Below, one piece after another: positions 2,098 to 64,000 of a stretch of 64,000 bases of DNA. A model generated the notes under the pieces. It saw only the letters and a list, made by a program, of their open reading frames with translations. It made no database searches and was not told the origin of the DNA. Both the position numbers and the translations under genes were made by a program. Position 1 is the first letter of the stretch. Every line of letters starts with the position of its first letter. Source of the DNA: a virus (taxonomy: Duplodnaviria > Caudoviricetes); the IMG/VR virus record IMGVR_UViG_3300042280_000089, positions 3,188 to 67,187 of that record. One strand, given 5' to 3'.

Positions 2098-4275
2098 TCA
2101 GGCTGCTTGCGCATCCCGTTTGGCGATAGCTTTGCCCGCCGTGACCATGATGGTATTCATGATCTCATTTTCATCGAGCTTGTCTGCCAGCTTGTTGTTG
2201 AGATCCAGGACAGCGTTATGTACTTCGTCCCAGGACTTCCCGGAATCGACCAGTAAGAGGGCGTATTTGATCAGCTGGTTTGACCGATTACCGATACCGG
2301 TATGGTTGATAAACCAGCGCTCAAGATTGGTCAGCGATTGCTGGTCCAGCAGACGCTGTTTACGCTCCTCGTTCTTGCGGGTCTTCGGGATAAACTGCAG
2401 GGCATCCAACAACTCACCGTCGTTATACTCATAGTGTCCATTATGAGATAACCACTTGCGACACCGTTGGCCCGTAGAGTCGTCTACACTGAAGGGCAAC
2501 CATTCGAAGATGTTCTGCATGAACTCTTTGTATTCAGCTGAGTCCATCTTCAGGTTGTAGTTCAGTGGCAGCAGGATACGGAACCTATTCTCCTGTTCAG
2601 TGTGTCGTTTGGTTGTGTAATAGAGTGCCTTGTAGTCCTTTAGCAACAGCTTGGCCGTATCAAGGGATACGCCGCCGTCCACATCGATGACCACCATGTT
2701 GAAGCCCGGAATGGTCTTCTCCTCACAGCGGTGGCCATCGACAAAGTGATGTGAAGACCAGTGGAACCCGTCCGCTTGGGTCAGCACGTGCAGCTGATCA
2801 AACGGAACTTCTTCACATCGGTAGTTGAATGCGACGTGTTGGCCATAGGCGACGCGCATTTTACTCAGATCCGTTTCTTTAAGCGATTCCCCGGATAGGA
2901 ACTCGATCCCATCCATGTAGGATTTACGGATGATGATGTTGTTCTTGTAGCCGTAGGCAATCGCCAGATTCAACAGATCCTGTTTCTGGCTTTGAGAACC
3001 CTTATAGAAGGGCAGAACTTCTACCAGATCAGCCTGAGTGACTTCTGTACCAATGGCGGCCAGATATTTTGCCAATTTGACATAGTTACGATCCCGGTTG
3101 AGTAGTTGTTCAAAGGCTTTACCGGATTCCTCGGCCAGCTTGATGGCACTGAGTAGGTGCGCTTCAGTCACTTCATGCTCATCTTCAATGAAGGCATAGG
3201 TGCCCGCCAGCTTGAGCGATTTCCAGTACCGGTGTGACATCTCAGCACGGCGGATCTCTTCATGCTCTCCCATCTGGTTTGCACGCCGTTCGCAGTACAG
3301 CTTGTACTCCAGCATGGCGACCATGACTTCTTTGGTCATGGACAGCTCACGCCCGAAGTTGATCGGATCCGCCAGTATCGCCAATTGATCAGAAATCTGA
3401 TCCAGCTGGTGATCGGCTTGTTGATCGACCAGCAGGCGATACAGCTCTTCACCGGACATGTCGTAGCGTCGGGTGGCATGAGGGACATAGCCGAAAAAGC
3501 AGCGCCGTGCATACCCGTTCTCTAGCATGGTGTAGAACTCTTCTTCCACCTTGCCGCCGTTGAACAGTTTGGACGGGGTACCGAACATCAGCAGGTTAGT
3601 CGGAGTACGCCCATCGATCTCTTCTGCACGGGCAGAATCGGAAGTGTTCTTCACCAGCTTTTGACCGATCTTGCCATCATCGAACAGCTCCAGATAGGCG
3701 GTCAGTACATCGATGCTACTGGACAGATTCAGGCCGATCTCATCGATCTCTAGATTCACTGACCCGGCATCTGCCATCAGCAGCTTGTGTCGCATCTGCT
3801 TGATCGCTGGAACAGTGGCTTCAGAAAAACTGAATGCCAGCGGCCCCAGACCATCGAACTCCCGCCAGGTTTTTTCCAACTCTTTGTCGGGATCACTGTT
3901 CTTGCGTGCAGCGCGCTTAACAGACAGTTGTGGTACCGCCTGATCCGCAATCAACGGGAAGGTTTCTTCAAGGTACCGCTGCCTGAACTGATTGATAACG
4001 CGGTCTTCCAGAATGCCCTTACCGTGACCCTTACCGAAGCCAGAAGTTGCCAGGTTGACGGCAAACAAGTTGACTGGCACCGGATCCCGACGATCATGCG
4101 TACGGATCTTGCAACGCATCATAGAGGCCACTTTCGTCAGGTAGTAGGCCACCAGAATGCGGTAAAACAGCGGAGCCGTGTTCTGGGTTTTCTGACAGAT
4201 GATCTGTACCAGAGACTCCGCTACCGGGTTATGTGGGACAGTGCTCAGATCGAGCGTGTCAAATTGATTAGCCAT
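2098..4275 (-). CDS. N4 gp43-like DNA primase (with P-loop domain)
   Basis: About 725 aa; LATSGFGKG P-loop and C-terminal primase-like VIDVDGG and GNRSNQLIKYA motifs; lies between gp42-like and gp44-like genes; start moved to ATG 4275 (SD GGGGA). Confidence 0.85.
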   Translation of the reverse strand: MANQFDTLDLSTVPHNPVAESLVQIICQKTQNTAPLFYRILVAYYLTKVASMMRCKIRTHDRRDPVPVNLFAVNLATSGFGKGHGKGILEDRVINQFRQRYLEETFPLIADQAVPQLSVKRAARKNSDPDKELEKTWREFDGLGPLAFSFSEATVPAIKQMRHKLLMADAGSVNLEIDEIGLNLSSSIDVLTAYLELFDDGKIGQKLVKNTSDSARAEEIDGRTPTNLLMFGTPSKLFNGGKVEEEFYTMLENGYARRCFFGYVPHATRRYDMSGEELYRLLVDQQADHQLDQISDQLAILADPINFGRELSMTKEVMVAMLEYKLYCERRANQMGEHEEIRRAEMSHRYWKSLKLAGTYAFIEDEHEVTEAHLLSAIKLAEESGKAFEQLLNRDRNYVKLAKYLAAIGTEVTQADLVEVLPFYKGSQSQKQDLLNLAIAYGYKNNIIIRKSYMDGIEFLSGESLKETDLSKMRVAYGQHVAFNYRCEEVPFDQLHVLTQADGFHWSSHHFVDGHRCEEKTIPGFNMVVIDVDGGVSLDTAKLLLKDYKALYYTTKRHTEQENRFRILLPLNYNLKMDSAEYKEFMQNIFEWLPFSVDDSTGQRCRKWLSHNGHYEYNDGELLDALQFIPKTRKNEERKQRLLDQQSLTNLERWFINHTGIGNRSNQLIKYALLLVDSGKSWDEVHNAVLDLNNKLADKLDENEIMNTIMVTAGKAIAKRDAQAA

Positions 4276-4636
4276 GACAATCCCCGTATTCAAGAGTGAG
4301 CTGTGTTGCATCTGGGATGCGGTCATCAACACACTGTTCCCGTGTCAGTTCACCTGACCACACGCGCTGATACCAGCGAACCGATTTGTTCAGACCGATC
4401 TGCTGATTCAGACGATCAACCAGCTGAGGGACTGTCTCACGCTCATCACGCGGCAACAGGGCATTCTTCTCGGCCCAATCAGTCCGTGCCTGCAGAATGT
4501 AGGCGTATTGTGTGCGACTTACGCGACGACGATCCCGTGGTTTCTGCTTAGTAGGTTGCGTAACTGACGTTTCAACAACGTCAGCCTGCATCAAAAAGCG
4601 TCGGAAAAAAGCGAAAATACGAGTGAGTAATGACAT
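4268..4636 (-). CDS. hypothetical protein
   Basis: ORF overlapping both neighbours; start moved to ATG 4636. Confidence 0.6.
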   Translation of the reverse strand: MSLLTRIFAFFRRFLMQADVVETSVTQPTKQKPRDRRRVSRTQYAYILQARTDWAEKNALLPRDERETVPQLVDRLNQQIGLNKSVRWYQRVWSGELTREQCVDDRIPDATQLTLEYGDCHG

Positions 4637-4646
4637 GACTATCTCC

Positions 4647-5633
4647 TTAAATGACCAATGACCCATCTTTGATCAACTGCTTGGCTTGTGAGCAGATAGG
4701 CTGTACAGGACAGTATCTGCAGGCAGTGACTTCCCCAGGAACCGGGACAATTAATCCAGTGCCGCCATCCTGAGTCAGTCGAAGCTGGGCTTCTGCCAGC
4801 GTGTCAAAGTTCTTGGTAGCACGCGCTGTCTTTTTAGGATTGCGGTAATACTTGTACACCGGCGGCTTACGCCACAGCTCTTCATCAGTACAATACGGCA
4901 ACTCCGCCTCCGGCGTGTCGGCGTACTGTTTGATCTGAGCCAGTTTGCGGCGAACCCACAGTTCAGTTTCGGCGTAGCTCATCAGGGAATACCGCTTGAA
5001 CATGACGCGCTTAGACGGATATCCCTTGCTGGCTTCGCTCAATGCACGAACTTTGCTCCAATCGGTAAAGATGAATTGAATCTTCATCTCGTCCTTAGTA
5101 ATCAGCTGAGGGTCAAGCCAACGGTAGATACTGCCCTGCAGGCGGTACTTTTCATCATTACTGCCTGACATGTAGCTGAAGACACTGGTTGACTTAAAGT
5201 CTTCCAGTCCACCATCAGCAACAAAATCAAACTTGCCTGAAATACGGAAACCATCAATTTCCTTAGACAGACGCTGTTCCATGTAGACCGGAATATCACC
5301 AGGTTCCAGCTCACTGGGTAGCGGGTTGACCTTTACCCGTTGAATAACGTGCTCAGGATAGCCCAGTTGTCGCAGCGCATTTTCTTTGTTGCTCTTCCAT
5401 GCTTTTTCGATTGAGTCATGGATAGCAGTACCCATGCGGGAATTGACCAACGATTCCAGTTCGACTGGATTATCTTCAGGCGACAGGCGACGGGACAGAA
5501 TAATCTGCCGAAGCGGTCGCAGTAGTGTTGTTGCAGACAGGTGATTGGGATCGGGATCATAATCGTAATGATCTGTAGCCAACCAAACTGCAATGGATAG
5601 CGGGATATCCGAGTGGTTGATATAAGCAGGCAT
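4647..5633 (-). CDS. N4 gp42-like PD-(D/E)XK nuclease
   Basis: SGKFDFV..LEDFKSTS motif, N-terminal SATTLLRP and C-terminal CRYCPVQPIC; position before the primase; SD AAAGGTGG. Confidence 0.85.
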   Translation of the reverse strand: MPAYINHSDIPLSIAVWLATDHYDYDPDPNHLSATTLLRPLRQIILSRRLSPEDNPVELESLVNSRMGTAIHDSIEKAWKSNKENALRQLGYPEHVIQRVKVNPLPSELEPGDIPVYMEQRLSKEIDGFRISGKFDFVADGGLEDFKSTSVFSYMSGSNDEKYRLQGSIYRWLDPQLITKDEMKIQFIFTDWSKVRALSEASKGYPSKRVMFKRYSLMSYAETELWVRRKLAQIKQYADTPEAELPYCTDEELWRKPPVYKYYRNPKKTARATKNFDTLAEAQLRLTQDGGTGLIVPVPGEVTACRYCPVQPICSQAKQLIKDGSLVI

Positions 5634-5703
5634 GATTCCACCTTTTTGTAGCGAGTGTCGAAGTGCCACTGATGGGTAGCACGACGACGCCCGGATGGGC
5701 GTA

Positions 5704-6048
5704 TCATGCTTCCAGTGGGATATCTTCTGTTAAGGAAATAAACGGGGCACGTTCAGTAATGAAATACCCTGCGGCATTTACCCAAAACGCACCTTGAGCG
5801 ATATACCGTTCATTGGTTTCCGGGTTTTCGATCAGCGTCCATTGACGATCCGGTGTTACTGGATACTGCTGACAGTAGGTCTGCAAATCTACCAAATAAA
5901 AAAGAGTACTGCCGTATCCATAATCAAATCCAGTATGGAAAGAAAAAGGATTAGGAATAGGGTTGTACTGTTCGGCCCAAAACTGGAGCGTCGGAGAGTT
6001 TTCGATATCATGATTCATGGGAGCCTCCGTAAAAGATTCGATTTTCAA
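5704..6048 (-). CDS. hypothetical protein
   Basis: 114-aa ORF in the minus-strand operon. Confidence 0.6.
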   Translation of the reverse strand: MKIESFTEAPMNHDIENSPTLQFWAEQYNPIPNPFSFHTGFDYGYGSTLFYLVDLQTYCQQYPVTPDRQWTLIENPETNERYIAQGAFWVNAAGYFITERAPFISLTEDIPLEA

Positions 6049-6226: not shown

Positions 6227-6494
6227 GGTGTAGATAATTCCAAGGTTTAATACGCTCGAACCGGTCATGCGCTGCTGAGAACAGTGCTGCACCTTTACGG
6301 CCATTGAGGCGTTCATAGCTTTTTTGAGCGGTGCGATATGACTCGACATCCGGATTGAATGAGAAGCGGTGTTCGCGCACTTGCTTCTGTACCATTACCA
6401 GTAGCGTTTCAGGTTTATTGGCTCGACGAAAGATATGGGCGAAATGCGCATACCAGTCTATTGTTTGGCCGGTTTCTTGCTGATGGACTCCCAT
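6219..6494 (-). CDS. hypothetical protein
   Basis: 91-aa ORF preceded by SD GGAGG. Confidence 0.55.
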   Translation of the reverse strand: MGVHQQETGQTIDWYAHFAHIFRRANKPETLLVMVQKQVREHRFSFNPDVESYRTAQKSYERLNGRKGAALFSAAHDRFERIKPWNYLHHV

Positions 6495-6889
6495 CGCTGC
6501 TTTACCTCCTTGTACGTTTTGGAATAGAACAGGGCATCGGGATTGATCAGATAATGCTCTTTACGTAAGCGTTTGACCAATCCTTTTTTAGACAACGACT
6601 GGTACGCCTGACTAAGGCGATTGAGTTCTGTTTTGGTGAGTGATTTACTGGGAATGACGACTTCATTCGTACGGTAGTCCAGGTTGTCTCGAAGCAGGCG
6701 GAAAAACCACTTTTCAGCTGCGTTCATGTCCAGTAACACATCAATCAGGTCATATCCGTGTGACTCATCCATTCGCGCACTCCCTATAGTAATGAAAGGC
6801 GGCAGTTCGAGATGAGCCTTTCTGGATACCCTTCCAATAACTAACTCTTCGTCCGCCTCGACAACCAGTCGAACATCACGCGATGTCAT
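6458..6889 (-). CDS. RepL-like replication/maintenance protein (winged HTH)
   Basis: C-terminal LSRAYQSLSKKGLVKRLRKEHYLINPDALF resembles the RepL-family HTH and YxINP motif. Confidence 0.55.
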   Translation of the reverse strand: MTSRDVRLVVEADEELVIGRVSRKAHLELPPFITIGSARMDESHGYDLIDVLLDMNAAEKWFFRLLRDNLDYRTNEVVIPSKSLTKTELNRLSQAYQSLSKKGLVKRLRKEHYLINPDALFYSKTYKEVKQRWESISKKPAKQ

Positions 6890-7069
6890 ATCTACTCCAA
6901 CAGATAGCAAGAGGCGGAAGTATATCAGCGTCATTCCCGTGGTCTACGGGAAGATGTGACAGATTTTCCCGTACTGTTGAATATTTAATGGGCGTAACTA
7001 ATTGAATTTAAAGGGGAAATTTTCCTTAAAAATATTCTTATACAGGGGAGGCAGCGCCCGGATGGGCGC

Positions 7070-7333
7070 CTATGGCTGACAAGGAACCGCTCGATACTCT
7101 TTCTTGGCACTCGGGCCACGTTGACTGACGGCATAGTCATTCAGCTCACGCCAGAAGCGCAAGCGCTCCTCGACTTTCTCTTCAGCTACACCGAATTCAA
7201 GACACAACCAATCTGACCAGACCAGTTCAGTCTCCGCATGACAGCCGTTGTAGTAACGACGCAGAGGATCGGTGTTAACGAGGATCCGTGTGCGGCACTG
7301 GATGGTGTGGGTACGATGCGTCTGTTCTGCCAT
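7070..7333 (-). CDS. hypothetical phage protein
   Basis: 87 aa with SD TAAGGA. Confidence 0.65.
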   Translation of the reverse strand: MAEQTHRTHTIQCRTRILVNTDPLRRYYNGCHAETELVWSDWLCLEFGVAEEKVEERLRFWRELNDYAVSQRGPSAKKEYRAVPCQP

Positions 7334-7354
7334 AGACGTATTCCTTAGAAAGCA

Positions 7355-7429
7355 CCGAGGCGAGACGAAGCCCTGTCGAGCACACCGCGCAGCGGTGCGC
7401 GCAAGACAGTGGCGAAGTCGTAGCCGAGG
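7355..7429 (+). other. 75-nt strand-specific ssDNA hairpin with tandem G.A mismatches and a GCA triloop
   Basis: Pairing CC/GG, GA/GA, GGC/GCC, GAC/GTC, GAA/GAA, GCC/GGC, TGTC/GACA, CACCGC-GCA-GCGGTG. Confidence 0.7.
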
Positions 7430-7459
7430 CTATTAGAAAAAGGATGTGAAAAAAGGGGG

Positions 7460-7495
7460 TTGCATCCTACTGATCGCATCAGTATAGTGCGCGCC
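7460..7495 (+). promoter_or_regulatory. sigma70 promoter with GC-rich discriminator, facing the att core and integrase
   Basis: TTGCAT-17 nt-TATAGT followed by GCGCGCC, with an A-tract upstream. Confidence 0.75.
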
Positions 7496-7513
7496 ATCGA
7501 ACGGCGGGACGCC

Positions 7514-7781
7514 GGGATACATGGAAAAAATTTCTTGTATCCCTACCTGTATCCCTGATCGTTCAAGTGGTGTAAGTGATTGATTTGAATAGTGCTTTCG
7601 AGTCTCTCCTCCCGCACCATTCTCCCTGTGATACCTTCCTATAGCTTCAAAAAAATCTCTTCTGAATCAGCACGTTACACCAGATCGCTTGATATACCTG
7701 CGCATAGCTTAACATGACCTTCATTACCTTTTTTGTATCCCAGTGTGTATCCTAAATTTCGGGGTACAACTTAGGGATACA
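7514..7781 (+). promoter_or_regulatory. attP region with arm-type integrase sites and IHF sites
   Basis: TGTATCCC-like sites at 7536, 7548, 7734, 7746 and inverted at 7514, 7761, 7774; IHF-consensus matches at 7573-7585 (reverse) and 7665-7677; sites on both sides of the core. Confidence 0.85.
7597..7619 (+). repeat. att core: 3' end of a tRNA-Leu (probably TAG type); not a full tRNA
   Basis: TTCGAGTCTCTCCTCCCGCACCA = T-loop, 3' T-stem, acceptor strand and CCA; the 5' half of the tRNA is absent. Confidence 0.85.
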
Positions 7782-7785
7782 CGAC

Positions 7786-9021
7786 ATGAAACGCACTGAC
7801 ATCAAGCGCCGCCCAATGGCGGACAGTGTACTGAAGACATTGGAACCGGAGGCCAAAGAGTACCGGGAGAAGGACAGTCCGGGCCTGTACTTTCGTGTTA
7901 AGCCAGACGGGAGTAAGTCATGGCAGCTGCGCTACAAGAATATGGAAGGAAAGTGGGCTTGGTTGGGTCTGGGTGGCTTTCCAGCTGTATCCGGTAAAGC
8001 GGCACGTAAGCGTGCGACTGAGCTGAATGAACTGGCAGCCGATGGGGTTGATATCAAAGCCCACCTGATGGAACAGGACGAGAAAAACCCTCCTGAAAAG
8101 GAAGGTGTGCTCTTTCGAGATGTAGCGGAACAGTGGTATCAGCGCAAGATTGCATCAGGTCGTTCAGCGAACACACTGGAACAGATGCGACGGTATCTGG
8201 ATGGGGATGTCTACCCAGTTATCGGGGATAAGGAGCTGACTGCGGTTACGCGCTGGGACTGTACCGAGATCCAGCGACGACTGGAGCGGCGTAAAGCGCT
8301 CAACATTGCCAAAAAGGTGCGTTCCTGGATAAGTCAGATATTCTCTCAAGCCATTGCAGAGAACCTGTGCGATCTGAATCCAGCCAGTGAGTTGCGGCAT
8401 ATTGCTGAGAAAGCGCCGGAAACCAAGCACTATCCGTACTTACTCGAAGACGAGTTACCTGCGTTCTTCAAAGCACTTAATGCTTCGCCTTCTCGTCAGA
8501 TTACACTGACACTGGTTCGGTTGGTGATATTGACAGCCTGTCGTCCGGGTATGGCTCGACTGGCCACTTGGGATGAATTTGACCTGAAAAACGCCTTATG
8601 GGTAATTCCAGCCAAACGCATGAAAATGCGACGGGATCATATCATTCCGTTGTCTACGCAAGCGGTGGCGTTATTACGTGATCTGCATGAACTGACTGGT
8701 TTGTCTACGTATGTGTTTCCTGGGAATGGCTCAATTCACCCGACATTGAGCGAAAACACAATCAATCAGGCACTGCGCCGGATTGGCTACAAGGATAAAT
8801 TGACAGGGCATGGCTCTCGCCATACGGCAGCGACGCTGCTTCGTGAACATGGGTGGCCCAGAGACTATGTTGAAACACACCTGGCTCATATCGAAAAAGG
8901 GGTAGCAGGTGTGTACAACAAAGCCCAGTATCTGAAGCAACGCCGCGAAATGATGCAGTGGTATGCGGACTATCTTACTGCATTGGAACAGGGAACTCCG
9001 GTTCCACCGGATCCGGTTTAA
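7786..9021 (+). CDS. int: P4-like tyrosine integrase
   Basis: N-terminal arm-binding domain (DSPGLYFRVKPDGSKSWQLRY); catalytic residues R(P), K, HGSR, H and Y (YNKAQY). Confidence 0.95.
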   Translation: MKRTDIKRRPMADSVLKTLEPEAKEYREKDSPGLYFRVKPDGSKSWQLRYKNMEGKWAWLGLGGFPAVSGKAARKRATELNELAADGVDIKAHLMEQDEKNPPEKEGVLFRDVAEQWYQRKIASGRSANTLEQMRRYLDGDVYPVIGDKELTAVTRWDCTEIQRRLERRKALNIAKKVRSWISQIFSQAIAENLCDLNPASELRHIAEKAPETKHYPYLLEDELPAFFKALNASPSRQITLTLVRLVILTACRPGMARLATWDEFDLKNALWVIPAKRMKMRRDHIIPLSTQAVALLRDLHELTGLSTYVFPGNGSIHPTLSENTINQALRRIGYKDKLTGHGSRHTAATLLREHGWPRDYVETHLAHIEKGVAGVYNKAQYLKQRREMMQWYADYLTALEQGTPVPPDPV

Positions 9022-9242
9022 GCCGGAACAGCGCGAGACATAACCAGCTCGCTGTAGGCGTAGATGTCTGACAGTCGGAAACGCACCGGGGAGAACTGGG
9101 TCGGCTTTTCTTTAAAGCCTTTCGGGAAGTCTGGATCATTTTTCCGACGCAGATCCAGTTCTGAAATGCTAATGCCCAGGATGTTAGCAGCTTGGGCTTT
9201 ACCGATCTGAATGTACTGAGGGTCAATGCCGTTAAAGTTCAT
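9018..9242 (-). CDS. AlpA-family excisionase / recombination directionality factor
   Basis: 74-aa HTH with DPDFPK and VRFRLSDI motifs; convergent with int, stops overlapping by 4 nt. Confidence 0.8.
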   Translation of the reverse strand: MNFNGIDPQYIQIGKAQAANILGISISELDLRRKNDPDFPKGFKEKPTQFSPVRFRLSDIYAYSELVMSRAVPA

Positions 9243-9257
9243 TGTAATGCTCCTTCG

Positions 9258-9281
9258 AAAAAGCCCCTGTAAAAGGGGCTT
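9258..9281 (-). terminator. terminator-like hairpin upstream of the excisionase
   Basis: AAGCCCCT/AGGGGCTT stem with a short U tract on the minus strand. Confidence 0.55.
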
Positions 9282-9293
9282 ATCGTTGTATGT

Positions 9294-9572
9294 TTACGGG
9301 TAAGTCCAAAGGAGCTTACCTGACAGAGTGTTATTCCAGGTGTCGTAGTACGTGGGTGTTGCTTCTTTACTGCGTTCCCAATTCTTACGCCGTACTTTGA
9401 AGCCGACTGGCTTATCCAGACAGTACGTCTTCTTATCCGGGCCTGTCGTAAAGGGAATATACGCAGGCACCTGAATCAGCAGTGGACAATCAACTGGAGG
9501 CAGTTCTTTGTTCCAATGCGTGATCAGGTGGATGTCATGTACGACACTTTCTACTGATGGGTACACGATCAA
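9294..9572 (-). CDS. hypothetical protein
   Basis: 92-aa ORF coupled to thyX. Confidence 0.6.
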   Translation of the reverse strand: MIVYPSVESVVHDIHLITHWNKELPPVDCPLLIQVPAYIPFTTGPDKKTYCLDKPVGFKVRRKNWERSKEATPTYYDTWNNTLSGKLLWTYP

Positions 9573-10309
9573 TATTCTCCGCGTGTCAGGGCTGCCCAGC
9601 TAACCGGATAAAGCGGTGCGATGATCTCATCGACCTGTTTTGCCAGTTCCTGGATTTCCTTTTGAGCATGGCTGTCGCTGCGCTGATTGTAGAAATTAGC
9701 GTAAGCGTACAGTGAACCAGTCCAGACCCAATTCACTTCGGTGCCCTGAGGCAGGAAAAAACGGGCCTGTTCAGGGCAGATGCCAGCTTCAATAGCGCCC
9801 AGGTAATTATTCACAGCGGCTTCACAGGTGCTGCGGTAATTCTCCATCCAATACTCATTGTCTTCGTGTGGCTCGTCAGCAGAGCCTTGCTTCACGTTGG
9901 CTGCTGCTTTGCGGAAGTACTCCGGGAAGAAGAACTCTGGTTCGGTCTTGATGTAGCGGCGTGACTCTTCTGACTCCACAAGGCCAATTTTGTGTTTGAA
10001 AGCCTGTCGGGCAATCGGTACCGGCGCCTGCATTCGCAGTGTGATATGGGGGTGTCCAAACGGTACCCAATGCTCAGGAATATTTCTCAGGTAGACCGCG
10101 AGTTCACGCAGCTGATCGAAGTCCTTGGCCAGCCCCATTTTAGTAATAAGGGCTTCCCAGTCATCCGTTTTCATACCACGTGCCAGAAAACGCACCAGTT
10201 TATGGTTATCTTCATCAGAGAATTGAGACGCCAGTTTACCGAATGACTGGCGGGCAAAATTGGCGACGTCGTTATCAGTCAGGTAGTGAGAAATGTATTC
10301 TGCTTTCAT
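9569..10309 (-). CDS. thyX: FAD-dependent thymidylate synthase
   Basis: ARQAFKHK...ESEESRRY ThyX motif; PEQARFFLPQ; RSDSHAQKEI. Confidence 0.92.
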   Translation of the reverse strand: MKAEYISHYLTDNDVANFARQSFGKLASQFSDEDNHKLVRFLARGMKTDDWEALITKMGLAKDFDQLRELAVYLRNIPEHWVPFGHPHITLRMQAPVPIARQAFKHKIGLVESEESRRYIKTEPEFFFPEYFRKAAANVKQGSADEPHEDNEYWMENYRSTCEAAVNNYLGAIEAGICPEQARFFLPQGTEVNWVWTGSLYAYANFYNQRSDSHAQKEIQELAKQVDEIIAPLYPVSWAALTRGEY

Positions 10310-10536: not shown

Positions 10537-10726
10537 TTGATACTCCTGATAAAAGACTGGTTTCGTTACTGACGTCATCTTCGTAATCCCAATCATCTAC
10601 ACGATCAGGATGACTGTGGTGACGTATACTTTTTTTAAGTTGTTGGAGATACCGCTGTTTTTCTACAGCAGCCTCCTGTTTGAGAAGATGATATTCAGTA
10701 TCGTCCTCATAGATGTGCCTCATCAT
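10514..10726 (-). CDS. hypothetical protein
   Basis: 70-aa ORF with SD GGAGG. Confidence 0.5.
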   Translation of the reverse strand: MMRHIYEDDTEYHLLKQEAAVEKQRYLQQLKKSIRHHSHPDRVDDWDYEDDVSNETSLLSGVSNGSSFYS

Positions 10727-11177
10727 GTCCTCCTACCGGAATGACAATAAAACGCGGAACCCGTTGGACATTTATAAGCGTCGGGGTGGTTACGTCTGCC
10801 CAATCCTTATAGAGATCCGCCAAGCTCATCTCAGGTAGTGGTTCTTTCTCAATGTGTTGCTCAGCTAACCATTCGTTAATGTGTGAAGCAGCTGTGGTGT
10901 GAGAAATACCATATTTATGAGCCAGTGAACGTAGTGATATGCCGTCTTCCAGTAGCTGCAGGATGATGTCCCGATCCTCTACAAAAGACTTTACAGCTTC
11001 AATGCGAGGGTCTTTTCTTGGAGGCAATCCAAGGCGCCGCCGTACTCGGCACAGATTGCTTTTTATGTACTTCGGCGTGGTTTTGAAATGCTTGGCAATA
11101 TCATTCATTGAAGTGTGTGCGTAATACATGTCCAGCATGGTTTGCACACGCGGCGATACTGAATGCTTTTTAGGCAT
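10707..11177 (-). CDS. putative HTH DNA-binding protein
   Basis: Two HTH-like segments (MNDIAKHFKTTPKYIK; SLRSLAHKYGISHTTA). Confidence 0.55.
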   Translation of the reverse strand: MPKKHSVSPRVQTMLDMYYAHTSMNDIAKHFKTTPKYIKSNLCRVRRRLGLPPRKDPRIEAVKSFVEDRDIILQLLEDGISLRSLAHKYGISHTTAASHINEWLAEQHIEKEPLPEMSLADLYKDWADVTTPTLINVQRVPRFIVIPVGGHDEAHL

Positions 11178-11183
11178 GGTGAA

Positions 11184-11393
11184 CTACTTGACTCGACGTG
11201 AAGCTAAGCGCTTAAACGCTTCCAGGTCTGCTTCCAGTTCGTAGGGCTGGTCGTGCAACACAAAACGTTGTTGCCCCATCTGAGCAATGACGGAATCGGA
11301 TGTGATGGTGATCGATGTACCTGTCCCTAAATACTGACGGAGCCGACGAATCGATTCCGCAGCATGGGACAGGGGATTAATGAAATATGTCAT
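11184..11393 (-). CDS. hypothetical protein
   Basis: 69-aa ORF coupled to its neighbour. Confidence 0.5.
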   Translation of the reverse strand: MTYFINPLSHAAESIRRLRQYLGTGTSITITSDSVIAQMGQQRFVLHDQPYELEADLEAFKRLASRRVK

Positions 11394-11683: not shown

Positions 11684-11889
11684 TAAGCGCGTCCTCGCTT
11701 ACGGTCGCGTTCCCAATCCATTGCACAGTCCGGGTCGCAGAATAGCTGCTGAGAGTTATGCAGGGGTTCTGAGCACCAATGACAGCAGCCCACCGGCAGC
11801 AGCTCTCGCGGCTGATTGCGGATCGCATCGGTGCGCAGCTTCAACAGGGTTTCTTCGGTGTCAAAGGTATTTTCAATAAAGTCAGGCAT
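11683..11889 (-). CDS. small Zn-ribbon protein (DUF2116-like)
   Basis: CHWCSEP...FCDPDC; start moved to ATG 11889. Confidence 0.6.
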   Translation of the reverse strand: MPDFIENTFDTEETLLKLRTDAIRNQPRELLPVGCCHWCSEPLHNSQQLFCDPDCAMDWERDRKRGRA

Positions 11890-12334
11890 GAGATCCTTCC
11901 ATAAACAGCTTAGGAAAATCACGGAAAGGGAGTCGTAACGCTTTGGTACTGATCGAGCCCCACATCCCTGCATCTTGTTTGTCGATGAATGATTGACAGG
12001 ATGTCAGCAGGTCATTCTCAGTATGGCGGGAAATTGAGACGTTCAGCTTGAGTGTTTTGCACCGGTTATAGACCGAGTGTATTGGACGTCCTAATTTTTT
12101 TGAGATGACTTCAATTGGTTCGTTAGCTTGAACCAGACTCTTTAATCGCTTGTCCGCTTGACGTGTCCAACGCTTATGATCAGGGCGTGGAATAATACTA
12201 ATGCCTAAATAACAGGCACGTTGCCGGACAGCATTACCAGTACGTCCCAGAATTTCAGCAATAGCTACTGAGCCAATACCTTGTTTGGCTAATTCCATTA
12301 GTAGCTCATCGTCTTCTGGTTTCCAGACTTTCAT
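11882..12334 (-). CDS. Myb/HTH-repeat protein
   Basis: Two repeats of W(K/T)xxxD...LG RTxxAV. Confidence 0.55.
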   Translation of the reverse strand: MKVWKPEDDELLMELAKQGIGSVAIAEILGRTGNAVRQRACYLGISIIPRPDHKRWTRQADKRLKSLVQANEPIEVISKKLGRPIHSVYNRCKTLKLNVSISRHTENDLLTSCQSFIDKQDAGMWGSISTKALRLPFRDFPKLFMEGSHA

Positions 12335-28065: not shown

Positions 28066-28322
28066 TATGGGGTAGGGTCAAGAGATGAAGTGATCGGTTA
28101 GCACACCGGGGGGGGGTATATCCGCGTTTTTGCTTCGCAGGGTAGTAGTAATGCACTCGTACCCAATTATTAATTTTCCCTAAACCCGACCTGAAAAATT
28201 ATGCGAGATATTTTCCGTCAACCCTGAGCCTCCCATATTCGCCTACAACGCCCGTACTATCACTGTCCAATACCTTTCTTTGGTCAATACCCATCGTCGC
28301 TTACAGGCGATTTTAGAGGCTC

Positions 28323-28369
28323 TACGGACAGGGGAGGGTGTAGCGTCAGCGAAACCCGACCTGTCCGTA
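28323..28369 (+). other. ssDNA hairpin with G.A internal loops, in the putative genome-end region
   Basis: TACGGACAGG/CCTGTCCGTA stem, GGGT/ACCC, GTA/GAA loop, apical GTCA; contains TAGCGT. Confidence 0.65.
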
Positions 28370-28451
28370 CCAGATAAATAATTCATGTTTGGTTTCGGAT
28401 TAATACTATATGACCCCTATAACCTAATGCAGTTAATGGGGTGTTGTATCT

Positions 28452-29150
28452 ATGGCCGATTTAACGGTTGATGTATTTAAGACAGTATTGCCCGCTAATC
28501 TACGGCGCAATGTTGATCAGGATATGGTGGATCGGATTAACAAAACCATTACCGATCCTGAAGTACGAGAAGCCTTTCGTGAAAACCTGTTGAGCTACAC
28601 GTCGGTTTTATCTCAGGGAAAGTTTAAGCTCCAAAACTATATCGATGCTGTGAAGTACGTGTCCTACAAATTAATGGGTGACAGTAATATCACGGCCTAT
28701 TCAAAAGCCTTCCCTGACAAAATCCAGCGATTTACCCAGCAGGGTGTCAGTTCAAAAGATATTGCCAGCTATGTCACGGCATATAACAAATCCAAGCTGG
28801 TGAATCTCATCATGGAACAGACACTGGTTCCTACGTGGGTACTCAACCAGGACTTATATCAGAAAGCCCTAAATGTGCAGGCAGAACTGATGATGAGTGC
28901 CAATAGCGAGAAGGTGCGTTGTGATGCAGCCAACAGCCTGATCAACGCTCTGAAGCGCCCGGAGACACACAAGGTCGAGCTGGATTTAGGGGTGAAGGAA
29001 GACAGCGTTATTGAGTCTCTGCGGGCCTCTACGATGGCATTGGTGAACCAGCAAAAAGAGATGCTGAAAGCTGGGTTCATGAACGCCCAGGAAGTGGCAC
29101 ACAGTCGGATCATTGAAGGGGAGGCGACGCATGTCTCAGACCCTGAATGA
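28452..29150 (+). CDS. N4 gp69-like protein (putative terminase small subunit)
   Basis: FRENLLSY..GKFKL.NY..AVKYVSY and VRCDAANSL motifs; immediately before TerL. Confidence 0.85.
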   Translation: MADLTVDVFKTVLPANLRRNVDQDMVDRINKTITDPEVREAFRENLLSYTSVLSQGKFKLQNYIDAVKYVSYKLMGDSNITAYSKAFPDKIQRFTQQGVSSKDIASYVTAYNKSKLVNLIMEQTLVPTWVLNQDLYQKALNVQAELMMSANSEKVRCDAANSLINALKRPETHKVELDLGVKEDSVIESLRASTMALVNQQKEMLKAGFMNAQEVAHSRIIEGEATHVSDPE

Positions 29151-31770
29151 AGCCTTACGTGAAGCCAATCAAGTCTGGGGTGTTGATGATTATCTGAATG
29201 CGACGGATTACAGCATCCACCCGGAGTATGTCCCCAGTGACTTTGCACTGGAGTTTGTGAACTTCATTAAGCTGGTGAATGGTGAAGACGGGGAAGAGAA
29301 CAAGACGCCCCTCGTTCACTACTACATGCTGGATACGCTCACGAATAATGGGCGACGGATCCTGAACATGTGCCATCGCGGTATAGCCAAGACGACCGTG
29401 ATGGGGGAATACCTGTTTTTGTACATTGCTACCTACGGAACACTGCCGGGTTTCGGTAAGGTCACATTGGCTCTGTATGTCTCTGACTCCATCGAGAACG
29501 GTGTCAAGAACATGCGCAAGAACCTGGAGCACCGATGGGAGAATTCTGATTTCCTCAAACGATTTGTGCCGACGATCCGTTTTACGGATATCCGCTGGGA
29601 GTTCGTCAATGCGGATGGACACAAGTTTATCGTCAAGGGGTATGGCGCCAAGGCACTATCCCTGGACAGCGAGCTTCATACACTGGAAGGGCGCATTACG
29701 ATTGGTGAATGCAAGGTGGGTGATCGCATTTTTGGTGCAGATGGTAAGCTGACAGTGATTACGGCGAAAAGTGAAGTTTTTCACAAACCCATGTATGAGC
29801 TGGAGCTTGAAGATGGTCGCACCCTGAAAGTGTCCGAAGATCATTACAATCCTGTTGTGGTTAATACATCTCCCAATGGTATTGCTCGTTGGGAAGAAAA
29901 AGTATTAACCACCGCTGAATTGCTAGAACAGCCACTGACTCACACCAAGAAAGGAAACAAGAATCACCGAGGCACCGGTACCAAGCATCTGGTTCAGGTC
30001 AAGAACATTGAACCACTGGAATACCCGCACAAGGAATTTCCTGTAGATCCATACACGCTTGGTGTTGTGCTGGGTGACGGATGCATACGGAAAGAGTGTG
30101 GATCAGTGGAGCTGACTGTTCATGCAGATGAGTTATCCCATTACCACCAGAACATTCCTTATGAATTTGGTGCACTCTATTGCGATAAGCGATCCAGTGC
30201 AGTCACTCAGTCAATTCGTGGATTGGGCCGTGCATTGAAGAAAATGGGGCTTAATGTGCGGGGAGAAATGAAATTTATTCCTGCTGAGTACTTCTACGGC
30301 TCCATACAGCAACGACTCGACATGTTGCAGGGATTGCTGGATACAGACGGAACTATTAGTAAAACAGGGCGTATCAGCTTCACCAGTTCCTCGTACCAGC
30401 TTTGTGAAGATGTAGCCTGTTTGGTGCGTTCTCTTGGTGCTAGTGCCAGTAAGATACGTAAGCAAAAATCTTCCGAAGCCTACCGTGTCGAGATATGGAT
30501 GAAACTCAACCCATTCCGGCTGTCCCGTAAGGCTGAACGCTTTGTGCCCAAAGAAAAACGAATGAATGTGGTTGCTGTGCGGCGTATTCCAGATGAGCCA
30601 AGCCAGTGTATTGCGGTAGACAACGAGGAGCGGCAATTCGTTGCAAATTGTTATTTCCGTACTCACAACACGGGTGTGCGTGGTGCCAAGGAGATGGGGC
30701 AGCGTCCTCAGCTGGCGGTACTTGATGACTTGATTTCAGACGAAGACGCTCGCTCAGCCACGGTGATTTCTGCAGTAGAGGACACGGTGTACAAGGCTGT
30801 GACCTACGCATTGCACCCTGCCAAGAATCTCATCATCTGGTCAGGGACACCGTTCAATGCGAAGGATCCGCTGTACAAAGCTGTTGAATCCGGTGCATGG
30901 GCCGTCAACGTGTTCCCGGTGTGTGAGAAGTTTCCGTGTAGTCGAGAGGAGTTCCGGGGTTCATGGCCGGATCGCTTTACCTATGACTATGTGAAGGAGC
31001 AGTACGAGTCGGCATTAAAGCTGGGCAAGGTCGATACCTTCAACCAGGAATTGATGCTGCGCATCATGTCGGAAGAAGATCGTTTGATCGAGGACGGGGA
31101 CATAGGTTGGTACAAGCGTGCGCTGGTACTGAGTAACCGTCACCGGTTCAACTTCTACATCACGACCGACTTTGCAACATCTCAGAAAACCAGCGCGGAC
31201 TTCTCGGTGATTTCAGTCTGGGCCTACAACAACAACGGCGACTGGTTGTGGGTAGACGGCGTATGCCGTCGGCAGCTCATGGATAAGAACATCGATGATC
31301 TGTTCCGGCTGGCTCAGGAGTATCGACCGCAACAGGTGGGTATCGAAGTCACCGGACAGCAGGGCGGCTTTGTTCAGTGGATTCAGGAACAGATGCTGGT
31401 ACGCAACATCTTCTTCCCGCTGGCTTCAGAAGGGAATACCGGTAAACCAGGTATCCGACCGAACACCAACAAGTTAGTGCGCTTTAACACGATGGTGCCT
31501 CTGTTCAAAGCCCATAAGATATTCTTCCCGATTGAGAAGCGAGACTCACCTGAAATTCAGGAAGCGCTGGAAGAGTTAACGCTGGCATCGAAAAGTGGAT
31601 TCAAGAGTAAGCACGATGACTTCATTGATACCATTTCAATGCTGAGCAGTTTAACCCCGTGGAAGCCAACCGAAACGGGTGATTTAGTGGCGGCTAAAGG
31701 ACAGGATTATTGGGAGCTGGACATAGAACCGGAGGATAATAGCACAGCCCTCGATTCCTATATTGTTTGA
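29131..31770 (+). CDS. terL: terminase large subunit (N4 gp68-like) with intein
   Basis: HRGIAKTT Walker A, AVLDDL Walker B, FYITTDFAT and SKHDDFID nuclease motifs; splicing restores KGYGAK|TGVRG. Confidence 0.95.
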   Translation: MSQTLNEALREANQVWGVDDYLNATDYSIHPEYVPSDFALEFVNFIKLVNGEDGEENKTPLVHYYMLDTLTNNGRRILNMCHRGIAKTTVMGEYLFLYIATYGTLPGFGKVTLALYVSDSIENGVKNMRKNLEHRWENSDFLKRFVPTIRFTDIRWEFVNADGHKFIVKGYGAKALSLDSELHTLEGRITIGECKVGDRIFGADGKLTVITAKSEVFHKPMYELELEDGRTLKVSEDHYNPVVVNTSPNGIARWEEKVLTTAELLEQPLTHTKKGNKNHRGTGTKHLVQVKNIEPLEYPHKEFPVDPYTLGVVLGDGCIRKECGSVELTVHADELSHYHQNIPYEFGALYCDKRSSAVTQSIRGLGRALKKMGLNVRGEMKFIPAEYFYGSIQQRLDMLQGLLDTDGTISKTGRISFTSSSYQLCEDVACLVRSLGASASKIRKQKSSEAYRVEIWMKLNPFRLSRKAERFVPKEKRMNVVAVRRIPDEPSQCIAVDNEERQFVANCYFRTHNTGVRGAKEMGQRPQLAVLDDLISDEDARSATVISAVEDTVYKAVTYALHPAKNLIIWSGTPFNAKDPLYKAVESGAWAVNVFPVCEKFPCSREEFRGSWPDRFTYDYVKEQYESALKLGKVDTFNQELMLRIMSEEDRLIEDGDIGWYKRALVLSNRHRFNFYITTDFATSQKTSADFSVISVWAYNNNGDWLWVDGVCRRQLMDKNIDDLFRLAQEYRPQQVGIEVTGQQGGFVQWIQEQMLVRNIFFPLASEGNTGKPGIRPNTNKLVRFNTMVPLFKAHKIFFPIEKRDSPEIQEALEELTLASKSGFKSKHDDFIDTISMLSSLTPWKPTETGDLVAAKGQDYWELDIEPEDNSTALDSYIV
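29653..30669 (+). mobile_element. 339-aa Ala1 (class 3-type) intein with LAGLIDADG endonuclease
   Basis: Starts ALSLDSELHT and ends SQCIAVD...FRTHN, followed by Thr; LAGLIDADG blocks LGVVLGDG and LQGLLDTDG. Confidence 0.93.
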
Positions 31771-44718: not shown

Positions 44719-45888
44719 ATGAGCCGAACTTACAATGATCCGATTGGCGGTACCCCTTCTTCTGTGGGCCCGCAGCTGAACGACTTTTACTTCCAGAAGA
44801 AAGCGCTGATTGAAGCGCGTAAAGAGCAGTACTTCATGCCGCTGGCAGATGTAACTGCCATGCCGAAAAACTTCGGTAAAACCATCAAGCGGTACCACTA
44901 CCTGCCGCTGCTGGATGACCGCAATATCAACGACCAGGGTATCGATGCGTCTGGTGCTGTGATTGCGGACGGTAACCTGTACGGATCCAGCAAGGATATC
45001 GGTACCATTACCGGTAAGCTGCCGGTGCTGTCCGAAAACGGTGGTCGTGTAAACCGCGTTGGTTTCAAGCGCATCGAGATCGAAGGCACCATCGAGAAAT
45101 TCGGTTTCTTCGATGAGTACACTCAGGAATCCGTTGATTTCGATTCTGACGCAGAACTGCTGATGCACGTTAACCGCGAGATGGTCAACGCTGCACACGA
45201 GATCACTGAAGACGCCCTGCAGATCGATCTGATCAACGGTGCCGGTGTGATTCGTTATGCAGGATCAGCGACTCAGAATTCTGAGATCGACAACACCTGT
45301 GAAGTCACCTACGGCGACCTGATGCGTCTGGCCATTGACCTGGATAACAACCGCTGTCCGAAGCATACCCGTGTTATCACCGGTACTCGCATGGTGGACA
45401 CCAAGGTCATCAGTGCCGCTCGCATCATGTATGTGGGTTCTGAACTGATTCCGCTGCTGAAGGGTATGACTGACCTGCACGGCAATCCGGCCTTCATCAA
45501 CGCGAAGCATTATGCCGCTGCCGGTACTGTACTGAACGGTGAGATCGGTTCTATCGATGTCTTCCGTATCGTGGTGGTGCCGGAAATGCTCAAGTGGGAA
45601 GGTGCAGGTGCCGATGCGTCTACTACATCCACTCACTATGAGACCGGTAACAAGTACGACGTCTTCCCGATGCTGGTTGTTGGTGATGGTTCCTTCACCA
45701 CCATTGGCTTCCAGACTGACGGCAAGACCGTTAAGTTCAAGATCACCCACAAGAAGCCGGGTGAAGCCACTGCGGATCGTAACGACCCGTATGGTGAGAC
45801 TGGCTTCATGTCCATCAAGTGGTACTACGGCACCATGATTCTCCGCCCGGAGCGTCTGGCCCTGATCAAGACTGCAGCCCCGATGTAA
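44719..45888 (+). CDS. major capsid protein (N4 gp56-like)
   Basis: YNDP...[42 protein letters not shown]. Confidence 0.95.
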
Positions 45889-52146: not shown

Positions 52147-55100
52147 ATGTGGCCATTTGAAGAAACCCCTTACTCTATTCAAAACATTCGTGATAAACAC
52201 GAAAAACTCCGGCAAGCCTCCGAAGCCAAGCGCAAATTACTAAGCTCACTGACCCCTTTGTCGGATACTCAAAAAGCCGAGATTTTCACTGCACCTGAAG
52301 ATCCCGCATCGGTATATCTACCGGAAGATCGTGCAAGCGCACAATTGGATGCAGCGCTACGGGCAGGTCTGGACAAGATTCAGCAGCAGAACCAGGAAAA
52401 CTGGCGTCAGTGGCATGAACAAGGTTCTCTTACTGGATATGTCAAAAACACTGCCGCGCAGGTCGCTGACAAAGTATCTAATATAGCTATTGCACCTGTG
52501 ACGGTTCCGACAGCAATAGCGGGCATGGGCATGATCGGTCAGGTTGATCAGGCTGCACGCGATGCCTACTTTGGTTTGAAGCAGGTCGCTGAAGGTAAGC
52601 ATGCCAGTGCACGTTCACGCGCGGAACTGGATGCAGCACTGCTGAAAGGGGTGATTACCCCGGAAGAACACCAGCAAGCCCTGGCTGCAGTGAATGCCTA
52701 TGAAGGCAACCTGAAGGTACCTGAAGACCTGTCTGCACTGCAGAAGCCGACGCCTCTTCTTCCGTTTGGTTCTCGCCTGAGTGATATGCTGGATCTGGGT
52801 ATCAAGGTCGATGGCTTCAATCGCCCGACGCAGGGTAAAACCTTGCAGCGGGGCGAGAAGCTGATAGACATCTCTAGCACGGTATACAAGGCACAGGAAG
52901 ACACCATCGGCAAGGTAGTTGACGATACCCGTGTCAACAAGCTGGCAGGCGATGTATACGACGCGTTCAAAGGTACATCTGATAAGTCTGTTCTGGAAGC
53001 CATTGCAGATAACAAGACCGGTGCGGCTGACATCGTGACAGAAGCTGCTGCCGAGATCGCCATGTTCCTGTCGTCAGGTGGCCTGAGTGCATTAGGTAAA
53101 GTAGGACGAGTAGTAGGCACACTGGCCCAAGCCAGTGTGGTAGGGGAATCTGCTACTGAAGCCTCTGCCCAGGTACTGGAAGGGATGCAGGAAATCCTGC
53201 AACGCGATGGCACCATTACCGCCGATCAGATTGCGGGCTTAATTGCAGGTGGTGCAGCGTATGCCGGTCTGGATTACGCCGAAGTTGGTGTGTTGGCCAA
53301 TGCCCTGAAAAAGAACACGCCGCTGCTGAAAGCCCTTCAGAAACAAGACGGTGACGGTCGGCTGGTACGAATCGCCAAAGACACGTTGAACCGCACCGGT
53401 GCAGTAACGGCTGTCGGTGCTAAGGAAGGACTCGTCGGTGGTGCACAGGGTGGTCTGGAAGAAACTGTACTGAAGGATAACTACGACCTGGATCAGGTGG
53501 ACATGGCCAAGGTGGCCACAGATGCTGTACTGGAAACCATCGGCGCCACCGGTGTCAGCGGTACCAAAGAAGGTCTTGGTTTAACGCGGGATACAGCAAA
53601 AAATCTGTTGATGCGGAGCCAGGACAGCCAACAATCTGGGGCAGATAATACAAATACCCTGGAATCTTCTATGGAGATTGACAAAGAACATCCGCTGTCT
53701 AAAATCCGCGACGCTGTTTTGCAGCCGGAGCTGAGTAGTACCGATAAAGAGAAGTTCCAGAAAGATGCTTTTAAGACACTTAGTGAAATGTTCGACCAGC
53801 AGGATGCGCTTGTTAAGCGGTATGAAAGCCTGCAGGGAAGCACTGAACCGTCGGCTCAGCAGGAAGCTGTCAACATTGATCAGCAGATCAAAGCCATCAA
53901 TGAGCAAATTCGAGCAGCACAAAAGCTGCTTGACGAAATTGTCGTTGCCACAGCAGACACTGAAGTAGAGAAAGCTGCAGAGAAACTGGCAACGCAAGAT
54001 ACTGACGCGGAAACAGCACAGGTTGAAGCGATGCGGTTGATTACCGCCGCAAGCCGTGATCCGAACAGTATCAGCACAGATGCACTCAATAAGATCCTCT
54101 CCAGCGCAGCGCTGACACCGGCACAGCGTACATACTTTGAAGCCTTTGCCGCTGCCCGTGAGTCCGTACAAGACGTTGAAGAACTGAATGGGGTAGGCCG
54201 TACCACTAACGATGTAATCTACGGCAACCCGGAGTTGGGCTGGAAAGGTATCAAGCAGTATCGTCGTGAGCTGGCGAGCCATTTGGCTGCCGGTAACGAA
54301 GTAGGTACCAAACGTACCTTACAGCAGCTGTCTCGCTTTGCTGAACACCAGTCTCAGAAGGCACAGGATTTCCGAACAGCGTTTGAAGCCATCAAAGAAA
54401 TGAAGCTCAAACGCGGTGAGTTATCACCTGAGCGCCGTGAACAGCTGCGTGCTGCTGTTAAGCAGGTCAGCGAGAACTACACCCAGCAGGACGGTAAGCC
54501 GTATCGCTTTACAGCACGCACCCCGGAATCGTTGGTAACAGCCGTTGAAGCTGAGGCGCAGGCACTGAACAACCTGTTGGTTGAATCTCAGGCACAACAG
54601 CAGCTGATGAAGAGTATGGCGTCAGCGTCTGAACAAGCCAAGGCTGTTCGTGAGGAGGTTTCTCCCATTGAACCTGAGCAAACAACTGAAAGGGTAGATG
54701 TCACACAGACAGCAGCGAACGCACGTCCGGCCCCGGTGAATACTGCTACGGCTAAAAAGGCACCTGTATCCGCACGACAGACCGATTCCGTTACACCTGC
54801 TACTGAGGCAAGCGTAATGGAAGGGACAGCTGCGCCTGCAGAAAATGCACAGACTGCTGTTTCGAACGAACCGGCACCGATTACACAACAGACCGAACAG
54901 GTACAGCAGACTACACAGACTCAGGAGCAACAGGCAGATTCACCCGTTGATTCTGATGAGGTAGATCAGGCAACAGATACTGATATAGCACCGGATACGC
55001 AGGAAGAAGGCGATGAACCCAAAAAGAAAGCATGGACAGATAGTCTGTTCACGGGTTTCTCAGAACGTATTCGTGGCTTTTTCTCTTCCAAACAAGAGAC

Positions 55101-63820: not shown

Positions 63821-63876
63821 TTTCCTACTTCCTTTCTTAGGTTAGCCGTCACAGCGGCGTGTATCCGCTCTCGAAG

Positions 63877-64000
63877 TGCATATTCCGGCCCATCGTGACC
63901 GCCCATTCCGTTTGAACGTGACCGCCTGTTCCGGTTGATCGTGACCGCTCATTCCGTTTTATCGTGACCGATTTCGGGCGTTTTTCCGGAATCACCGGTC
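63877..64000 (+). mobile_element. terminal region of an IS21-family insertion sequence
   Basis: Starts TGCATATTCC; CGTGACCG at 63894, 63917, 63940 and 63963 (23-bp period), like IS21 multi-site ends. Confidence 0.8.

Follow-up and report, generated by a model that had tools for sequence, protein, structure and literature searches.

Can a phage with an N4-like genome live as a prophage and, if it does, what does its attachment site look like? This question is raised by positions 7440-9242 of a 64,000-nt stretch of viral DNA (Duplodnaviria; Caudoviricetes), hereafter the window, which comprises bases 3188-67187 of the 67,187-bp IMG/VR virus record IMGVR_UViG_3300042280_000089 and in which a tyrosine integrase gene and a short sequence identical to the end of a tRNA gene lie side by side. 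N4-like phages are textbook lytic phages and have been widely proposed for therapy on that basis. The combined analysis of this locus and its relatives makes it highly probable that the window represents a temperate phage of the N4-like type (Schitoviridae) whose genome, of approximately 67.7 kb when an insertion sequence (IS) at its end is left out, is not integrated and carries a lambda/P4-style integration cassette. Located between the DNA-polymerase/thyX genes and gp42/gp43-like genes, this cassette combines a phage attachment site (attP) with genes for a heterobivalent tyrosine integrase and for a small protein of putative winged-helix fold.

The attachment region, with a P arm, a core and a P′ arm, spans positions 7440-7785 (plus strand), directly upstream of the integrase gene (int). 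The core (7597-7619, plus strand) matches the 3′ end of tRNA-Leu(UAG) exactly over 23 bp, from the T-loop to the CCA; it lies 167 bp upstream of the integrase and is single-copy in the 67,187-bp record even when up to two mismatches are allowed, and ARAGORN detects no tRNA gene within the window. A motif search locates arm-type sites at 7514-7521 (minus strand), 7536-7543 (plus) and 7548-7555 (plus) in the P arm (TGTATCCC), and at 7734-7741 (plus), 7746-7753 (plus) and 7774-7781 (minus) in the P′ arm, that is, three per side of the core in a near-symmetric layout. The underlying motif TGTATCCY has eight matches in the 64 kb, six of which fall within the 270 bp of 7514-7781, where approximately 0.015 would be expected. 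Moreover, a consensus scan reveals a perfect match to the integration host factor (IHF) consensus, WATCAANNNNTTR, on the minus strand at 7573-7585, 12 bp to the left of the core; with only three perfect matches in the 64 kb, this predicted IHF site is suggestive, not proof. Phage genes flank the module on both sides, namely thyX (9569-10309) followed by the DNA polymerase gene on the right, and a PD-(D/E)XK nuclease gene (4647-5669) and a primase-like gene (2098-4332) on the left; therefore, we identify the site at 7440-7785 as attP, as opposed to attL or attR, the two junctions of an integrated prophage.

The gene that follows the P′ arm (7786-9021, plus strand) encodes a tyrosine integrase of 411 aa with arm-binding, core-binding and catalytic domains, all of which score above the Pfam cut-off (Arm-DNA-bind_3, PF13356; Phage_int_M, PF22022; Phage_integrase, PF00589). 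The catalytic Arg, His-x-x-Arg, His and Tyr (motifs RPG, HGxRH, LxH and YN) are invariant in an alignment of seven sequences, that of the window and six relatives. The integrase thus appears intact, without defect, and recombination activity can be predicted for it. Its closest counterparts in the searched phage collection, with 54.8% identity over 98% of the length, come from the temperate Pseudomonas podophages vB_PaeP_FBPa42 and FBPa19; no integrase in this collection is more than 55% identical, and a megablast search of positions 7000-9700 against the collection gave no match. On these points the sequence-only reading of the locus, which had posited an integrase, a tRNA-Leu 3′-end core, arm-type sites on both sides of that core, and an attP recognizable by the phage genes to its left and right, holds up well.

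With respect to the bacterial counterpart of this site (attB), the 23-bp core is found as an exact match in 25 species-representative loci; ARAGORN recognizes a tRNA-Leu gene in each of the 20 loci scanned, and the anticodon is UAG in all but one. Host genes for a matching tRNA-Leu(UAG), on which the sequence-only reading had made itself depend, do exist. The left boundary of the identity is always the T-loop, and the right end lies 0-4 nt past the CCA. Most of the organisms concerned belong to the Gammaproteobacteria (Marinobacterium, Oceanospirillum, Pokkaliibacter, Thiomicrospira and Sulfurivirga). In a Marinobacterium metagenome-assembled genome (MAG; G007), the identity with attP extends to 26 bp (to position 7622), and this attB is unoccupied, in a tRNA cluster of the order Arg-His-Leu-His. 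A second link to the same MAG is provided by the left end of an IS21-family insertion sequence at the right edge of the window (63877-64000, plus strand), inside which the record breaks. The last 125 bases of the window are 100% identical, over 125 bp, to two contig ends of MAG G007 and show 94% identity to a Marinobacter plasmid, at a position approximately 110 bp upstream of the annotated istA/istB; the IS21-family terminal sequence that had been proposed from the letters is thereby confirmed, with the transposase genes lying beyond the end of the record. Because this IS is shared and the attB is exact, a Marinobacterium-type gammaproteobacterium is our best guess for the host. Neither an N4-like capsid gene nor a close integrase was found in any of five genomes with the exact attB core. 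As a separate observation, the 43 bp before the IS end (63834-63876) do not match the sibling contigs L242 and L243, which lack the IS and carry a gene for a 113-aa protein there, and the strain of the record appears to have a different gene upstream of the IS, interrupted about 26 bp before its stop codon. The phage also encodes a tRNA-Leu(UAA) of its own (record bases 733-818, outside the window), which is unrelated to the attP core; a host assignment through this tRNA was tried and rejected, given that it is too divergent from the host copies (in global alignments of 87-90 columns, only 58-65 positions match).

Related integrases reside at occupied tRNA genes. The IMG/VR proviruses L005 and L007 encode integrases 54-56% identical to that of the window just downstream of tRNA-Leu genes, and their attachment regions are built in the same manner, with the tRNA-Leu gene, approximately 100-170 nt, then TGTATCC repeats, and an inverted copy just before the int ATG. 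In G064, a further genome from the family to which the Marinobacterium MAG belongs, the gene for an integrase of 63% identity directly follows an Arg-His-Leu(UAG) cluster. Together, these arrangements indicate that the integrase lineage of the window uses tRNA-Leu.

Furthermore, N4-like relatives themselves are found in an integrated state. A capsid search that covered 190 genomes of the likely host family detected three N4-like elements (G140, G087 and G050). The first of these, on a contig of 197.7 kb (G140 C19), is a prophage of approximately 69.5 kb that is syntenic with the record from end to end, with identities of 82% for the major capsid protein, 62% for the DNA polymerase and 58% for the portal. 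It is flanked on one side by uvrC, pgsA, tRNA-Gly and tRNA-Cys and on the other by tRNA-Leu(UAA) and a chemotaxis receptor gene, and its boundaries are marked by a repeat of 16 bp from the 3′ end of tRNA-Cys; both junctions also have arm-type repeats. Its integrase, only 32% identical to that of the window, occupies the same slot, between homologues of the genes at 5704-6048 and 11184-11393. In G087 (C16), a tRNA-Leu(UAA) gene is followed by a gene for a 327-aa integrase and then by a syntenic N4-like prophage that extends up to the contig end, and on the 74.9-kb contig of G050 the gp42 homologue adjoins the DNA polymerase gene with no cassette in between, so that the slot is empty. The occupied sites in G140 and G087 indicate that integration does occur among N4-like phages of this clade. 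Judged by its capsid, the closest full-length relative (G012, L205; 82% identity, 71,677 bp) starts inside the 3′ half of a tRNA-Cys gene, with the integrase gene following (L205 1-1357), and is probably a provirus trimmed at attL that uses the same target as the prophage in G140. In two uncultured N4-like relatives, G001 and G002, the integrases are 65% and 60% identical, respectively, each accompanied by a 74-aa open reading frame (ORF), and the tRNA-like core and the arm repeats are particular to each of these genomes; among 20 further N4-like relatives, an integrase is present in eight, G012 being one of them. In G001, in addition, thyX and attP are separated by approximately 7 kb of plus-strand genes (583, 435, 117, 1082 and 135 aa; L003 2319-9656), which run antisense to the backbone and represent cargo beside the integration cassette.

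A further feature common to the window and G140 is a promoter-like element in the P arm (7460-7498, plus strand), composed of TTGCAT, 17 nt, TATAGT and then a G+C-rich block, which points at the core; its function is a prediction from the letters, and a consensus promoter scan did not list it. The 17-nt block GTATAGT(G/A)CGCGCCATC within this element (7482-7498) resembles a -10 hexamer followed by a G+C-rich discriminator, and 16 of its 17 positions recur in the attR arm of the G140 prophage (L228 16339-16355 = G140:C19:116339-116355), where the block likewise points at the core and is unique within the 3.4-Mb genome. Within the G140 genome, the block is directed at the tRNA-Leu(UAA) gene of the host, which the prophage has severed from a Gly-Cys-Leu operon. 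The block is absent from ten other N4-like relatives and is therefore not a general feature. Conceivably, all these observations reflect a lineage of truly temperate Schitoviridae in Marinobacterium-type marine bacteria, in which int/attP cassettes for Leu-UAG, Leu-UAA and Cys would be exchanged at a fixed slot of the replication module and a stable-RNA-type promoter in the P arm would, once integration has occurred, read outward and re-drive the tRNA genes thereby separated from the promoter of their operon, namely tRNA-His at the Marinobacterium attB and tRNA-Leu(UAA) in G140; we regard this wider scenario as tentative and rather doubtful in its full extent.

For the window itself, the anatomy of the cassette suggests a mechanism of a familiar kind. 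The N-terminal domain of the integrase would bind the TGTATCCY arm sites and its central and catalytic domains would bind the core, with a bending protein at the IHF-like site, and the 23-26-bp core would recombine with its identical counterpart at the 3′ end of a tRNA-Leu(UAG) gene in the host. This gene would be rebuilt at attL, leaving a prophage bounded by direct repeats of the core, and the small winged-helix protein probably serves as the excision directionality factor.

The gene for this small protein (9018-9242, minus strand; 74 aa) is convergent with int, such that the two stop codons overlap, and gene calling also picked it up in a separate, independent assembly. It is kept beside int, with 53-55% identity, in the N4-like relatives G001 (L003) and G002 (L004). 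The AlphaFold2 (AF2) model (pLDDT 79) shows the order strand-helix-helix-strand-strand-helix, which corresponds to a winged-helix layout, and a Foldseek search with this model ranks MerR-type winged helix-turn-helix (wHTH) proteins first (E 0.025) and the RdfS excisionase tenth (E 0.09). Because of its position by the integrase, its conservation in two relatives and the winged-helix model, the 74-aa protein is likely, albeit not shown, to be a directionality factor; of the xis proposed in the sequence-only reading, the ORF stands, and its identity depends on position, conservation and a weak fold match. Between the xis-like ORF and the neighbouring 92-aa ORF (9294-9572), a hairpin scan detects an intrinsic-terminator-like hairpin (9264-9277, minus strand). 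For the 87-aa, 92-aa and 158-aa neighbours, no PHROGs, Pfam or NCBIfam match was obtained beyond a sub-threshold RepL match of the 158-aa ORF. Two small DNA-binding proteins are encoded between thyX and the DNA polymerase gene, one with several weak helix-turn-helix (HTH) matches (10707-11177) and one Myb-like (11882-12334); no other regulator candidates were seen near the cassette, and neither of the two resembles CI.

The backbone in which the cassette is embedded has the hallmarks of N4. A 3525-aa ORF (52147-62724, plus strand) is similar to annotated virion RNA polymerases of N4-like Vibrio phages (25-26% identity, E ~1e-59), and the 389-aa major capsid protein of the N4 gp56 type (44719-45888, plus strand) shows 65-69% identity to 480 N4-like phage records. 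Pfam searches identify an SU10/N4-type portal (PF23899), a family A DNA polymerase (PF00476) and a T7-like RNA polymerase fragment (PF00940) in a 406-aa ORF (RNAPII). The ORF layout places the early and replication genes on the minus strand (299-28156), diverging from the late genes on the plus strand (28452-62724); the divergent intergenic region (28157-28451), internal here, corresponds to the place of the virion ends in N4. The length of the record and the closing of its map at approximately 67.7 kb without the IS both fall within the size of Schitoviridae-type genomes (~60-80 kb). These features mark the backbone of the window as that of an N4-like (Schitoviridae) phage, and the virion RNA polymerase, PF00940 and gp56-type capsid matches bear out the genome type that had been proposed beforehand from the letters.

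The TerL ORF of the window (885 aa, 29113-31770) contains a LAGLIDADG domain (PF14528, residues 401-460), and the TerL homologues of G140 and G087 align without it, which is consistent with an intein in the TerL of the window. The capsid genes of G087 (C16:86561-87967) and G050 (C35:16549-17964) match in two pieces within a single open frame of 473-484 aa, which points to an inserted domain of approximately 70-90 aa relative to the 389-aa capsid protein of the window, and the capsid match is likewise split in several N4-like Vibrio phages. The thyX homologues of G001 (L003 1106-2281) and G002 (L004 1879-3441) match in two pieces several hundred bases apart, suggesting an intron or intein there.

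A number of results weigh against the view that the phage is temperate and that its cassette is complete. No CI/S24-type repressor was found among approximately 35 ORFs scanned around the module and in the early region. All five contigs with the exact integrase show the attP arrangement, and neither attL nor attR of this phage was found by pattern scans for the core with the P′ arm or the P arm with the core (two scans of metagenome contigs and one of viral contigs), which were uninformative in that attP itself was not returned either. The phage is absent from MAG G007, the candidate host, and no lysogen of this particular phage was found. Evidence for IHF is likewise thin: the sequence-only reading had placed IHF sites on both sides of the core, and of these the left one is the suggestive consensus match described above, and the right-hand candidate (7665-7677) has one mismatch and is no better than chance, such sites having a background of 0.89 per kb, so that the case for IHF on both sides is weak. 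For the 74-aa ORF, finally, Foldseek gave no match at E <= 0.001, and there was no Pfam, PHROG or NCBIfam match and no Xis/AlpA profile, with HTH_8 at an E of just 0.054.

Of the alternatives, the one that survives best takes its support from this list. The cassette could be an inherited or captured relic in a functionally lytic phage that no longer uses int/attP for lysogeny, as suggested by the contigs found solely in the attP state, by the lack of a classical repressor in the ORFs scanned and by the lytic growth of the cultured N4-like phages (PMC10654107). Against such decay stand an integrase without defect, the retention of six arm sites and of a core that exactly matches a host tRNA, and the pairing of int with the 74-aa ORF in relatives whose arm sites co-vary. 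Moreover, syntenic relatives are integrated in G140 and G087. We consider the relic unlikely.

Whether the genome is a circle bears on a second alternative. The record is classified as linear by IMG/VR, with a CheckV completeness of 91%, and an end-overlap test showed that it has no end overlap and is not circular on its own. A contig of 2,590 bp from a sister sample (L243, JGI 3300042285) joins position 63833 of the window to the first 127 bases of the record via 682 bp and bridges the record ends; therefore, the map closes at approximately 67.7 kb without the IS, the completeness of 91% is an underestimate and the assembly broke in the IS. In the sequence-only reading, the internal position of the virion-end region had been taken to fit a circle. 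That region is indeed internal, but virion DNA whose terminal repeats have collapsed would assemble in the same way, so that its position is no demonstration of a circle; circularity is seen in the map that closes through the sibling contig, not in the ends of the record itself. The data thus show a genome that is not integrated, for which a circle in the cell and virion DNA would look alike. The IS insertion, which had been taken as a sign of residence in a host cell, fits time spent inside cells without proving lysogeny. A circular map, together with the sub-threshold RepL match in the neighbouring 158-aa ORF (6458-6934; E 0.0093, 15.9 bits against a cut-off of 20.3), might evoke a plasmid-like episome whose recombinase resolves multimers instead of integrating. 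Such an episome is quite improbable: a tRNA 3′-end core, an arm-binding domain and arm repeats are the signature of integrative systems, not of Xer/Cre-type ones, and the homologous integrases sit at occupied tRNA-Leu sites.

It is hardly tenable, furthermore, that the module belongs to a hitch-hiker, that is, a separate integrative island or satellite inserted into the phage. The closest integrases outside N4-like phages do come from unrelated proviruses and islands, and the module lies in a variable region and is missing in G050, but an island would require two copies of the core and a phage tRNA-Leu(UAG) gene, where a single core and no such tRNA are present; the arm sites flank this one core on both sides in the arrangement of an attP, and the prophage in G140 is a whole phage integrated with an equivalent cassette. 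In particular, an island inserted into a phage tRNA gene was considered and is ruled out by the single core and the absence of a tRNA in the window. The last alternative, an assembly chimera at the attP junction, to which the metagenomic source and the end of the record in a repeat (the IS) might lend some credit, is practically negligible, and misassembly at attP is excluded for practical purposes, because five contigs carry the exact integrase, each with the same neighbours, and a Logan contig, assembled independently, spans the junction with 100% identity over 13,236 bp; nor is there any discontinuity in G+C; the junction, whose possible misassembly the sequence-only reading had itself raised, is thus reproducible.

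The preferred interpretation, an unintegrated temperate N4-like phage, has implications beyond this locus. With each well-documented temperate member, it becomes harder to assume that N4-like phages are safe by default. A further question is how a prophage that needs a virion-delivered RNA polymerase for its early genes stays silent and re-starts. The present instance is unusually complete, in that its attP is defined, a plausible attB is known in the empty state, a shared IS points to a host, and relatives are integrated, with their junctions mapped, in genomes of the same bacterial family; it thus offers a concrete system for polymerase chain reaction, induction and integration assays.

The principle of temperate N4-like phages was published in 2023 (Zheng et al., 2023, mSystems 8:e00197-23, PMC10654107), as the sequence-only reading had in part conceded, and the present case refines and extends it and does not discover it. 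In that study, based on IMG/VR v3 and GenBank, lysogeny genes were reported for 54 N4-like genomes, along with 40 integrated proviruses, mostly from Moraxella, Oceanospirillales were among the predicted hosts, and it was concluded that some N4-like viruses are lysogenic; its text holds no attP, attB or tRNA-site analysis (attP is mentioned zero times and tRNA once). The phage of the window resembles those viruses in its N4-like backbone, its lysogeny hallmark gene and its IMG/VR origin, to which the anatomy of the attachment site, a host link via attB and the shared IS, and integrated relatives with defined junctions are added here. Compared with the Int-Xis-attP systems of lambda and P4, the arm-binding and catalytic domains, the arm repeats on both sides of a short core, the IHF-like site beside the core and the small partner gene of putative wHTH type are all alike, and the target at the 3′ end of a tRNA gene is that of P4-type integrases; in contrast, the xis-like ORF of the window matches no Xis/AlpA profile, and the backbone is that of an N4-like podovirus, with early genes dependent on the virion RNA polymerase. 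The Pseudomonas phages vB_PaeP_FBPa42 and FBPa19, at 41-44 kb, are not N4-like and have the integrase alone in common with the window. Another parallel is the G140 C19 prophage, which shares whole-genome synteny, the cassette slot and the 17-nt promoter-like block in its attR arm, and differs in having an integrase of only 32% identity that targets tRNA-Cys and in being integrated, whereas the phage of the window appears to target tRNA-Leu(UAG).

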